Shown here piece after piece: positions 11,512 to 14,543 of a DNA stretch of 48,134 nt; the stretch's first letter is position 1; each line of letters starts with the position of its first letter. The notes beneath the pieces were generated by a model that had not been told where the DNA came from, did no database searches, and was given only the letters and a program-made list of their open reading frames with translations. The stretch comes from a virus (taxonomy: Duplodnaviria; Heunggongvirae; Uroviricota; Caudoviricetes). The DNA lies in IMG/VR virus record IMGVR_UViG_2651869782_000034; one strand, written 5' to 3'. The position numbers and the translations under genes were made by a program.

Positions 11512-11932
11512 AATTCGATCTCCAGCACATCAGCAAAACGCTATTCACGCAGTACAGCAAATCCTTCCAGACCCAACCAAACCAATCGTAGTAACCATTC
11601 AGGAACGCAACCGCAGCTTAGACCAGAATCGGAAGCTTTGGGCTTGCCTTGGTGACGTTTCGCGTCAGGTTGAATGGCATGGTCGCTGGCTGGATGCAGA
11701 AAGCTGGAAGTGTGTGTTTACCGCAGCATTAAAGCAGCAGGATGTTGTTCCTAACCTTGCCGGGAATGGCTTTGTGGTAATAGGCCAGCCAACCAGCAGG
11801 ATGCGTGTAAGCGAATTTGCGGAGCTATTAGAGCTTATACAGGCATTCGGTACAGAGCGTGGCGTTAAGTGGTCAGACGAAGCGCGACTGGCTCTCGAAT
11901 GGAAAGCGCGATGGGGAGATCGGGCAGCATGA
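11492..11932 (+). CDS. ninB: NinB (Orf-family recombination mediator)
   Basis: MKKLTFEIRSPAHQQNAIHAVQQILPDPTKPIVVTIQERNRSLDQNRKLWACLGDV matches lambda NinB. Confidence 0.9.
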   Translation: MKKLTFEIRSPAHQQNAIHAVQQILPDPTKPIVVTIQERNRSLDQNRKLWACLGDVSRQVEWHGRWLDAESWKCVFTAALKQQDVVPNLAGNGFVVIGQPTSRMRVSEFAELLELIQAFGTERGVKWSDEARLALEWKARWGDRAA

Positions 11933-12456
11933 CTATCAAATCAAATACGGCAGCACACGACAAGGACTGCTGGAGAACGCCGCTTTGGCTTTTTGATGCA
12001 CTGGATATTGAGTTTGGATTCTGGCTGGATTCGGCAGCGAGCGACAAAAATGCTCTGTGTGCTCACTGGCTAACTGAGGCCGACGACGCGCTCAATTCTG
12101 AGTGGGTAAGCCACGGTGCAATCTGGAATAACCCACCGTACAGCAATATCAGGCCGTGGGTGGAAAAAGCCGCTGAGCAGTGCATACAACAGCGACAGAC
12201 GGTAGTGATGCTTGTGCCAGAGGATATGTCTGTCGGATGGTTCAGCAAGGCTCTGGAGAGTGTTGACGAAGTTCGCATTATCACTGATGGACGGATTAAT
12301 TTTATCGAACCATCGACAGGGATAGAGAAGAAGGGAAACAGCAAAGGTTCCATGCTGCTGATTTGGCGACCGTTCATCAGTCCTCGACGGATGTTTACTA
12401 CCGTATCCAAAGCGGCATTGATGGCGATCGGGCAGGGCGTCAGGAGGTCGGCATGA
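11929..12456 (+). CDS. DNA N6-adenine methyltransferase (phage Dam-like)
   Basis: [13 protein letters not shown] and NPPY catalytic motif; ATGA overlap with ninB stop. Confidence 0.8.
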
Positions 12457-12629
12457 GACGACAGCGACGAAGTATCACCGACATCATCTGCGAAAACTGC
12501 AAATACCTTCCAACGAAACGCTCCAGAAATAAACGCAAGCCAATCCCAAAAGAATCTGACGTAAAAACCTTCAACTACACGGCTCACCTGTGGGATATCC
12601 GGTGGCTAAGAAATCGTGCGAGGAAATGA
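12453..12629 (+). CDS. ninE: NinE
   Basis: [53 protein letters not shown] matches lambda NinE; CAGGAGG RBS. Confidence 0.8.
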
Positions 12630-12802
12630 CAATGCTTTTAATTCAACCAGGATTTGGCCTTAGCATCAAAAAAATGGCACATGTTTGGCGAGAAAGAGTC
12701 TCAACGAAAAATGGTGCTTATCAAGTTGCCATGTATCAGTATTTGTTGGCTAAACAGGGAGGCAGCAAATTATTTGTCTACATGCGCCAGAGCAGCATTT
12801 AA
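12626..12802 (+). CDS. Hypothetical protein (overlaps alternative ORF 12654..13034)
   Basis: ATG 12626 overlaps ninE stop with GAGGAA RBS. Confidence 0.35.
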
Positions 12803-13034
12803 CGACCCTGAGTGGTTTGTAGAAAACCATCACGCTGTTCGTCAGGCAAAGAGAAAGGCCAAAACGACATACATGAAGGCGTATCGAAAAGCATGGAAAG
12901 AACACCGCGATCGATACCAGCAAGACATGGAAAAGCTTGAATCAGAAAACATGGAATTAAGACGAAAGCTTGGTGAAGCAAAACGAGATATTGATGCTTA
13001 CAAGCGACTTTTTAATGGTGAAAGTCATGCTTAG
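12654..13034 (+). CDS. Hypothetical basic coiled-coil protein (start uncertain; possible ATG 12873)
   Basis: C-terminal KAYRKAWKEHRDRYQQDMEKLESENMELRRKLGEAKRDIDAYKRL is strongly protein-like; stop overlaps ninF start. Confidence 0.35.
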   Translation: MALASKKWHMFGEKESQRKMVLIKLPCISICWLNREAANYLSTCARAAFNDPEWFVENHHAVRQAKRKAKTTYMKAYRKAWKEHRDRYQQDMEKLESENMELRRKLGEAKRDIDAYKRLFNGESHA

Positions 13035-13140
13035 TCCATCCCAATCCCTTCAATACCAGAAAGAAAGCGTCGAGCGGGCTTTAACGTGCGCTAACTGCGG
13101 TCAGAAGCTGCATGTGCTGGAAGTTCACGTGTGTGAGCGT

Positions 13141-13682
13141 TGTATATATGAATGCTTAAATATGGTGGAACATAATGAGAAATATAAGCAACATAGACGA
13201 ATTAAGAAATAAATTATCATATGATGATGTTTTAGGTGCACTTAGATGGAAAGTGTCTCCTTCTAATAATGTTAAGGTTGGCAGTGTTGCTGGTTACATT
13301 AGGAGTGATGGTTATAGGATGTTAACTATCGATGGTGTAATTACTTATGCTCACCACGTTATATGGATGATAAATAATGGTGAGATTCCATTAGGGTATA
13401 AAATTGATCATATAAATGGAGTAAGGTCAGATAATAGGCTATCTAATCTTCGATTGGTTACACACCAACAGAATGCACAGAACCAAAAGAGAAAAATAAC
13501 CAATTCGTCAGGAGTGACTGGAGTGTATTTCAATAAAGAGAGATGCAAGTGGATTGCGAATATATGCGTAGATGGGCGCACCAAATATCTTGGAATATTT
13601 GCTAGCATCATTGACGCTATTGCAGAAAGGAAGAGGGCAGAAAAAGAACTGGGTTTTCATGAAAACCATGGCAGACCATAAC
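13141..13682 (+). mobile_element. Free-standing homing endonuclease gene insertion (AT-rich)
   Basis: Insert sits between two in-register halves of ninF and is visibly more AT-rich than flanks. Confidence 0.65.
13175..13681 (+). CDS. HNH homing endonuclease with AP2 DNA-binding domain
   Basis: HNH motif IDHINGVRSDNRLSNLRLVTHQQN; AP2-like GVTGVYFNKERCKWIANICVDGRTKYLGIFASIIDAIAER. Confidence 0.8.
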   Translation: MRNISNIDELRNKLSYDDVLGALRWKVSPSNNVKVGSVAGYIRSDGYRMLTIDGVITYAHHVIWMINNGEIPLGYKIDHINGVRSDNRLSNLRLVTHQQNAQNQKRKITNSSGVTGVYFNKERCKWIANICVDGRTKYLGIFASIIDAIAERKRAEKELGFHENHGRP

Positions 13683-13734
13683 TGCGCAGAGCTGATGAGC
13701 GATCCGAATAGCTCAATGTACGAGGAAGAAGACG

Positions 13735-14340
13735 ATGGCTAAACCAGCGCGAAGGAAATGCAAAATATGCAAGGAATGGTTTCACCCGGCATTCTCAAAT
13801 CAGTGGTGGTGCTGCCCGGAACACGGAACTCAGTTAGCACTCAAACTACAAAGTAAACAGCGAAAAAAAGCGGAAAAAGCAGCAGAGAAGAAACGGCGAC
13901 GAGAGGAGCAGAAACAGAAAGATAAACTTAAGATTCGAAAACTCGCCTTAAAGCCCCGCAGTTACTGGATTAAACAAGCCCAACAAGCCGTAAACGCCTT
14001 CATCAGAGAAAGAGACCGCGACTTACCATGTATCTCGTGCGGAACGCTCACGTCTGCTCAGTGGGATGCCGGACATTACCGGACAACTGCTGCGGCACCT
14101 CAACTCCGATTTGATGAACGCAATATTCACAAGCAATGCGTGGTGTGCAACCAGCACAAAAGCGGAAATCTCGTTCCGTATCGCGTCGAACTGATTAATC
14201 GCATCGGGCAGGAAGCAGTAGACGAAATCGAATCAAACCATAACCGCCATCGCTGGGCTATCGAAGAGTGCAAGGCGATCAAGGCAGAGTACCAACAGAA
14301 ACTCAAAGACCTGCGAAATAGCAGAAGTGAGGCCGCATGA
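13735..14340 (+). CDS. ninG: NinG (Rap-like recombination endonuclease)
   Basis: Near-identical to lambda NinG over most of its length. Confidence 0.9.
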
Positions 14341-14543
14341 CGTTCTCAGTAAAAACCATTCCAGACATGCTCGTTGAAGCATACGGAAACCAGACAGAAG
14401 TAGCACGCAGACTGAAATGTAGTCGCGGTACGGTCAGAAAATACGTTGATGATAAAGACGGGAAAATGCACGCCATCGTCAACGACGTTCTTATGGTTCA
14501 TCGCGGATGGAGTGAAAGAGATGCGCTATTACGAAAGAATTGA
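14337..14543 (+). CDS. ninH: NinH
   Basis: [42 protein letters not shown] matches lambda NinH. Confidence 0.85.

Follow-up and report, generated by a model that had tools for sequence, protein, structure and literature searches.

A probable free-standing HNH-AP2 homing endonuclease gene inserted in ninF of lambdoid prophages

Homing endonuclease genes are well studied in the lytic phages T4, SPO1 and ICP1, and to our knowledge hardly studied in temperate lambdoid phages, the textbook model of mosaic evolution. The closest solved relative of the protein discussed here, I-HmuI, is a strand-specific nickase. Comparable gene splits and insertions include mobE in nrdA of Aeromonas phage Aeh1 and the seg and mob genes of T4, and in FelixO1-like phages nrdD is split by a free-standing endonuclease gene (PMC4837284). 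One report describes an HNH domain followed by a C-terminal AP2 domain as a recognised phage homing-endonuclease architecture (PMC10448857, citing Magnani et al. 2004). Here we describe a gene of this kind that interrupts ninF in a 48,134-nucleotide stretch of DNA (IMG/VR virus record IMGVR_UViG_2651869782_000034), which we call the window. The ninF gene belongs to the early (nin) operon; it is small, encodes a zinc ribbon and has no known function.

We think it likely that the element is a free-standing HNH-AP2 homing endonuclease gene that entered ninF between nucleotides (nt) 116 and 117 and that, judging by its sequence, would cleave and home. Rather than a private, recent event, the insertion is an established, selected allele of lambdoid prophages that has hopped among mosaic contexts. 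RefSeq already shows the locus, as two 'NinF' fragments with an HNH gene between them.

The insertion in ninF and the protein it encodes

The main features, all on the + strand of the window, are as follows (ORF, open reading frame).

13027..13142, +: 5' part of ninF, 116 nt (nt 1-116 of 177), holding codons 1-38 and the TG of Cys39; Pfam NinF E=6e-12
13143..13681, +: the insert, a probable homing endonuclease gene cassette of 539 bp with 35.4% GC, made of a 32-nt leader and then the ORF
13175..13681, +: HNH-AP2 endonuclease ORF, 168 amino acids, intact; Pfam HNH_3, PHROG 99
13406..13474, +: HNH (beta-beta-alpha-metal) motif, residues 78-100, DHINGVRSDNRLSNLRLVTHQQN
13496..13654, +: predicted AP2-fold DNA-binding domain, residues ~108-160, a three-stranded sheet plus helix, from the family profile and Foldseek
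13682..13742, +: 3' remnant of ninF, 61 nt, holding the C of Cys39, codons 40-58 (19 codons) and the stop codon

We aligned the two ninF parts column by column with five intact alleles of 177 nt (from Stx1 phage, PA28, ST160 and two E. coli prophages). The insertion point falls within the Cys39 codon (TG/C, the slash marking the insertion point here and below). The parts add up to 116 + 61 = 177 nt, the exact length of intact ninF, with no gap and no overlap, and there is no target duplication or loss at either junction. Because the parts fit the intact alleles in this way, this is a clean 539-bp insertion, and excising the insert in silico restores a 58-codon ORF. The insert is compositionally foreign: its GC content is 35.4%, while the ninF pieces have 51.4% and the whole window has 47.3%. 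An earlier note, made from this sequence alone, had seen the first 37 and last 19 codons of ninF separated by about 540 bp of AT-rich DNA. The length and composition of the insert and the 19 last codons stand, while the 5' piece is 38 codons plus 2 nt, so the coordinates given there were right to within 2-3 nt. Two of the checks that it proposed, alignment with intact ninF genes and comparison of the GC content of insert and flanks, gave the insertion point and the composition just described.

The ORF matches Pfam HNH_3 (PF13392) with E=1.2e-19 and 70.1 bits (cutoff 24.8) over 45 of the 46 model positions, and it matches the PHROG 99 'HNH endonuclease' family with E=2e-69. Its D78-H79, N91 and N100 align with D74-H75, N87 and N96 of I-HmuI. 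All 63 homologues share D78 and N91, and at least 90% of them share H79 and likewise N100. A profile built from these homologues and compared with solved structures matched I-HmuI (1U3E) over the N-terminal two-thirds (E=2e-9), while residues ~108-160 matched the AP2/ERF domains of WRI1 (E=8.6e-5) and TEM1 (E=1.7e-3) and apicomplexan AP2 domains. Pfam AP2 was found at E<=0.01 in 34 of the 63 homologues.

The AlphaFold2 model of the 168-residue protein had a mean predicted local distance difference test score of 91.3 and placed a strand-strand-helix at residues 75-102. With this model as the query, Foldseek returned I-HmuI as the top match in the PDB (E=8e-4, probability 1.0), and the C-terminal sheet-plus-helix superposed on the AP2 domains of TEM1, AtERF1 and WRI1 (probability 0.99-1.0, root-mean-square deviation 2-3 A over ~55 residues). 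On profile and predicted fold, then, the insert protein is an I-HmuI-type HNH nuclease domain with a C-terminal AP2-fold domain, and the label 'HNH-AP2' is correct. The 168-residue ORF with an HNH motif and an AP2-type domain that the earlier note had read from the letters is borne out on both counts, with the catalytic residues D78, H79 and N100 conserved.

The last triplet of the insert is the TAA of the endonuclease ORF, so 0 nt of insert follow it. A Shine-Dalgarno-like sequence can be read in the leader, and no sigma-70-like promoter was predicted across 12500..14400, so expression of the endonuclease gene probably relies on read-through from the early operon. Four further features describe the translation signals and reading frames around the insert.

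13164..13169, +: Shine-Dalgarno-like GGTGGA in the insert leader, 5 nt 5' of the endonuclease ATG, read from the sequence
13027..13212, +: chimeric NinF' ORF, 61 amino acids, with NinF residues 1-38 followed by 23 insert-encoded residues that end in HVCERCIYECLNMVEHNEKYKQHRRIKK and a stop
13659..13742, +: putative 27-residue ORF that starts inside the endonuclease gene and reads through the ninF remnant
13735..14340, +: ninG (rap), Pfam NinG E=1.5e-89, whose start overlaps the ninF stop

The 3' piece of ninF is out of frame with the 5' piece because 539 is not a multiple of 3. The 5' piece continues into the insert as NinF', which keeps the second CxxC because the insert begins with a T that fills the Cys39 codon. 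NinF' therefore has all four of the zinc-ligand cysteines (C21, C24, C36 and C39), and the Pfam NinF model (PF05810) matches NinF' over positions 1-25 of 25 with 45.6 bits (cutoff 27.5). What changes is the tail, as the acidic 19-residue tail of NinF is swapped for a basic one encoded by the insert. RefSeq names the chimeric ORF 'protein NinF' (WP_032192604.1), and the equivalent of the putative 27-residue ORF is a second 'protein NinF' (WP_072146135.1). The 3' remnant holds the GAGGA ribosome-binding site of ninG and the overlapping ninG start, with the ninF stop codon at 13740-13742 and the ninG start at 13735. The locus is thus currently annotated as two 'NinF' proteins and an HNH protein, the last sometimes wrongly called a pseudogene. 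In E. coli AST240 (NZ_AP043633.1), RefSeq calls the copy in ninF an incomplete pseudogene. The label is an annotation artefact because the DNA is 100% identical to the intact ORF of the window.

An inverted repeat (GTTCAC-GTGT-GTGAGC, 13123-13138) ends 4 nt short of the insertion point. Its terminator-like score was due only to the T-rich tail supplied by the insert, and we rejected it as a terminator since such sites occur at chance level (3 found compared with 2.2 expected in the region).

The window is a P22/CUS-3/Sf6-like prophage of E. coli and not a lambda-like siphovirus. Among phages it is most similar to phiv205-1, CUS-3 and Sf6, with 96-97% identity across roughly half of its first 24 kb. 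The split ninF lies in the early nin region of this prophage. That region also has an ORF for a Dam-type methyltransferase (11869..12456), and a PHROG 1511 ORF of unknown function (12654..13034) lies directly 5' of ninF. We found no further HNH-AP2 genes in the window, and none of the three ORFs at the locus matched an NCBIfam model. The nin/Q region of AST240 (L001, 1458-2069, 3420-3569 and 6003-6515) has two additional annotated HNH endonuclease genes, one upstream of ninB and one downstream of Q.

Distribution, age and the target site

With 97.8-100% identity, the cassette is present in 45 of the 5,426 complete E. coli genomes, in every case in or beside 'NinF' annotations, and enteropathogenic E. 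coli (EPEC) E2348/69 is one of these 45. About 1,440 of the same genomes carry a contiguous ninF, which upholds the earlier note's view that the endonuclease gene inserted into a formerly contiguous gene. A further ~30 IMG/VR contigs and 4 metagenome contigs have the cassette. Its junctions are identical in all 33 loci that we examined (the IMG/VR loci include L008-L036), so presence and absence of the insert are polymorphic at one precise site. The closest proteins in phages, at ~50% identity, are from Klebsiella phages.

The flanks are much more varied than the cassette. In most loci ungapped homology to the window ends 60-95 nt away from the insert on its left side and 30-55 nt away on its right. 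The cassette occurs with both N-terminal types of ninF, the lambda-type MIDQNRSYEQ and the P22-type MLSPSQSLQYQK, and in at least 7 upstream and at least 7 downstream contexts, with downstream neighbours that include two types of ninG, a KilAC antirepressor and several others. The commonest haplotype, identical across all 539 bp, is found with both N-terminal types and in 3 upstream and 4 downstream contexts. Homing with short co-conversion tracts predicts an identical haplotype in varied flanks, and the pattern is consistent with this, although it is no proof. Measured against its mutation rate, the E. coli haplotype has spread among contexts recently. In two of the loci (L017, at ~1540-1600, and L029) an ORF beginning MSDVKEKDIPGFEGIYKVTENGDIISCRK overlaps the ninF stop, 3' of the remnant. 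Its start looks like the N-terminus of another HNH/NUMOD-type endonuclease, and as the ORF is shorter than 80 amino acids it is probably a fragment.

We found one diverged relative at the same site. This endonuclease (P0002) is 84% identical to that of the window in amino acids and 80% in DNA, and it lies on a 909-bp Logan contig (L039, from SRR25288770). Positions 1-620 of the contig have the same left junction, here within a divergent ninF that reads IHVCEKC up to the junction and then IYVLLNAGDDHEDNN and a stop. The endonuclease is 176 amino acids long, and 3' of it come a shortened ninF remnant ending in DPNGQMLEKDDG and a stop and then ybcO (DUF1364) in place of ninG. About 27 nt are missing compared with the arrangement in the window, which leaves the endonuclease ORF without its stop so that it runs into the ninF remnant. 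The scan of GTDB species representatives gave no more diverged same-site relatives, the metagenome scan gave only near-identical copies or distant ones (<=51%), and a scan for the junction pattern returned the same IMG/VR contigs and nothing further.

Between the endonuclease genes of the window and L039 the number of synonymous substitutions per synonymous site (dS) is ~1.3, and the ratio of non-synonymous to synonymous rates (dN/dS) is 0.07. The near-identical copies have 12 synonymous and 10 non-synonymous polymorphic sites, which gives a ratio of non-synonymous to synonymous polymorphism (pN/pS) of 0.22 (binomial P=5e-4 against neutrality). The ORF is intact in 31 of 32 complete copies. 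The sole frameshifted copy, with a 1-bp insertion near codon 85, is on an IMG/VR metagenome contig (L036, 3001-3505), and this could be real decay or an assembly error. An 84% relative at the same site in a divergent ninF, together with the dN/dS of 0.07, means that the association of endonuclease and ninF is old and that the enzyme is under selection; by these sequence comparisons the protein is kept functional by purifying selection. The earlier note had proposed a single recent homing event, which does not agree with such a widespread allele and such a relative.

Intact ninF genes hardly vary apart from a single hypervariable spot, and the insertion point adjoins it.

13134..13140, +: hypervariable patch, ninF nt 108-114, the third base of the Cys36 codon plus codons 37-38; the window reads T GAG CGT

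At the junction the window's own allele is GAGCGTTG/CTGCGCAGAG, with CGT (Arg) as codon 38. All 33 insert-bearing alleles have GAG CGT TG/ there, and the diverged relative has GAG AAA TG/. A CGT at codon 38 was absent from ~250 intact alleles sampled from IMG/VR, and a pattern scan of IMG/VR for an unoccupied parent allele with CGT gave 0 matches. The most similar intact E. coli allele, at 98.3% identity, has CAC at codon 38. Among 120 intact IMG/VR alleles we counted GAG CAC in 73, TCC GAT, TCA GAT or GCC GAT in 34, GAA GCG in 7, GAG TAC in 5 and GGG CAC in 1, and a second sample of 130 intact alleles gave the same picture. The commonest intact site is GTGTGTGAGCACTGCTGCGCAGA, which is also found in phage lambda. 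This is the site that the earlier note had reconstructed, so it had the commonest intact haplotype right, while the window allele itself differs from it in having CGT at codon 38. Lambda carries GTGTGTGAGCACTG/CTGCGCAGA, and its predicted insertion point is 42378/42379.

For a measure of diversity, alleles were found with distant anchors only (nt 58-74 and nt 136-149). Over nt 75-135 of 130 intact alleles, nucleotide diversity was 0.46 at nt 108-114 compared with 0.04 elsewhere (0.21 at most), and an independent sample gave 0.32 in the patch and 0.03 elsewhere. The patch lies 2-8 nt 5' of the insertion point and varies in blocks, with haplotypes GAGCAC, CTCCGAT, GAAGCG and GAGTAC (loci L120-L239 and L286-L302). 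The variation includes the synonymous third base of Cys36, whereas Ala-Asn, the 'xx' of the first CxxC, never varies. Such variability may reflect escape from cleavage, or the patch may merely be a tolerant loop.

We also looked for truncated or fused NinF proteins by a protein search with NinF', and the resulting sample is small and partly ascertained by that search. A P22-like prophage (L279, ~3115) has a large deletion with its left end at ninF nt 115/116, 1 nt from the insertion point, which fuses ninF directly to P22-type injection-protein genes. An in-frame fusion of ninF and ybcO, with the break at nt 104/105 (L280 and L281, ~2104), is on at least 24 contigs. Another deletion breaks at ninF nt 81/82 (L282 and L283, ~3114), and one protein (P0100) has a duplication after codon 37. 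Three of these four rearrangements lie within 12 nt of the insertion site, and their positions are suggestive of DNA breakage near it.

Readings of the locus

If the insert is a working homing endonuclease gene, it would be transcribed together with the nin genes upon induction or infection. The enzyme would then recognise the GC-rich intact ninF around GTGTGTGAGCACTG/CTGCGCAGA in an insert-free phage that resides in, or infects, the same cell, and would nick or cut it. Homing would follow as recombinational repair from the insert-bearing copy carried the cassette over. The split site would protect the occupied allele, perhaps together with the linked change from CAC to CGT 2-3 nt from the junction. 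Disruption of ninF would be tolerated because the gene appears to be dispensable. The 61-residue NinF' with its four zinc-ligand cysteines would remain, and the 3' remnant would preserve the translation signals of ninG.

Several observations count against the homing endonuclease reading. The insert is found in only ~3% of ninF-bearing E. coli genomes, which is a low frequency. None of the 50,697 phages in INPHARED has a record with the insert, where the flanks match and coverage is <=46%. Genomes with up to six copies of the ninF region had one insert only (one place is listed per record), and despite the multiple copies this could come about either because the enzyme is silent in lysogens or because the other alleles are resistant. 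Pfam AP2 matched the single sequence below its cutoff (E=0.023, 15.4 compared with 33.3 bits). In the literature we found nothing relevant on ninF with an HNH or homing endonuclease, nor on the insert protein. As ninF is a conserved linker between mosaic modules, ordinary recombination could also move the insert among contexts, and one old insertion spread by ordinary homologous recombination could give a pattern that sequence cannot separate from homing.

This last point leads to the alternative that survives best, which we nevertheless consider unlikely. Here an old single insertion is now a passenger shuffled by ordinary recombination at the conserved ninF core, and selection retains the nuclease for some other purpose, for instance keeping out competing phages by cutting their ninF, or stimulating recombination in the nin region. 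The dS of ~1.3 to the same-site relative makes the association old enough, mosaic breakpoints flank ninF in insert-free alleles too, the frequency is low, and purifying selection is compatible with any useful function. Homing, however, is what predicts an identical 539-bp haplotype in varied flanks with crossovers less than 100 nt away on both sides. In addition, cutting a competitor's ninF and being copied into it is the same molecular event as homing, so the two accounts differ mainly in who benefits.

It is improbable that the insert is an inactive relic, with an endonuclease that no longer works and a split ninF that is a tolerated scar in defective prophages. The copy on L036 is frameshifted, one RefSeq copy is labelled a pseudogene, and insert-free copies of ninF may coexist in insert-bearing genomes. 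Nearly all copies (31 of 32) are intact all the same, the 'pseudogene' has the same DNA as the intact ORF of the window, the catalytic residues are conserved, and both the pN/pS among close copies and the dN/dS over the deep divergence indicate constraint.

We give almost no credence to an ancestral two-gene arrangement, or to an endonuclease in a spliced-out intron or intein with whole NinF being made, since RefSeq does show two 'NinF' proteins flanking an HNH gene but ninF is a contiguous 177 nt in ~97% of ninF-bearing genomes and the pieces of the window's gene total exactly that length around a compositionally foreign insert. The population frequency and the exact restoration rule out two ancestral genes. 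A search for group I and group II introns gave no Rfam match at E<=1 over 12500..14300, and there is no room for a ribozyme because there are only 32 nt before the ORF and none after it. The in-frame stop codons and a length that is not a multiple of 3 rule out an intein.

Returning to the homing endonuclease gene, we also raise, as a tentative reading that is less likely than not, an ongoing arms race between the endonuclease and ninF in which its cuts help to shape lambdoid mosaicism. The variants of the patch (nt 108-114) would be cleavage-resistant targets, the CGT and AAA codons of the two endonuclease lineages would be self-immunity changes, and cuts repaired wrongly would have left the breaks 1, 12 and 35 nt from the site as scars.

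Comparison with described systems

If the patch and the nearby breakpoints do stem from cleavage, a selfish nuclease would be directly linked with how mosaic junctions arise and how prophages decay. Should the arms race also be real, a selfish nuclease would drive allele diversification and the formation of module boundaries in the nin region of temperate phages. Because lambda has an intact target and EPEC E2348/69 has the element, cleavage, homing, co-conversion and escape of the target are open to test by standard lambda genetics.

I-HmuI from Bacillus phage SPO1 (PDB 1U3E) is the most similar known enzyme, as it was the best match by both profile and fold. The two proteins are alike in having an N-terminal beta-sheet DNA-binding region followed by the HNH domain with a matching D-H...N...N, and they are of similar size (174 amino acids for I-HmuI and 168 for the insert protein), although their identity is only ~20%. 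They differ in the C-terminal domain, which is a helix-turn-helix in I-HmuI and has a predicted AP2 fold in the insert protein. I-HmuI is also encoded in a group I intron of the DNA polymerase gene, whereas the endonuclease gene in ninF is free-standing, with no intron.

The splits of the nrdD and nrdA type are similar in arrangement. There, as in ninF, a free-standing ORF in the same orientation interrupts a gene and leaves two separately translatable pieces, of which the 5' piece gains an insert-encoded tail and a stop codon. In those cases both halves of an essential enzyme are functional. The ninF gene, in contrast, is tiny (58 codons) and non-essential, and the ORF of its 3' piece is putative.

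HNH-AP2 enzymes of phages, cyanobacteria and protists, among them those encoded by the 'IPA-HNH' genes of Vibrio phage ICP1, have the same architecture as the insert protein, with HNH at the N-terminus and AP2 at the C-terminus (PMC10448857). The genes described there are phage-borne, mostly free-standing and often located at boundaries of genetic exchange, which matches the mosaic breakpoints that flank the cassette. Most of the described examples are from lytic phages and lie beside essential genes, while the cassette in ninF is inside a dispensable early gene of temperate lambdoid prophages.

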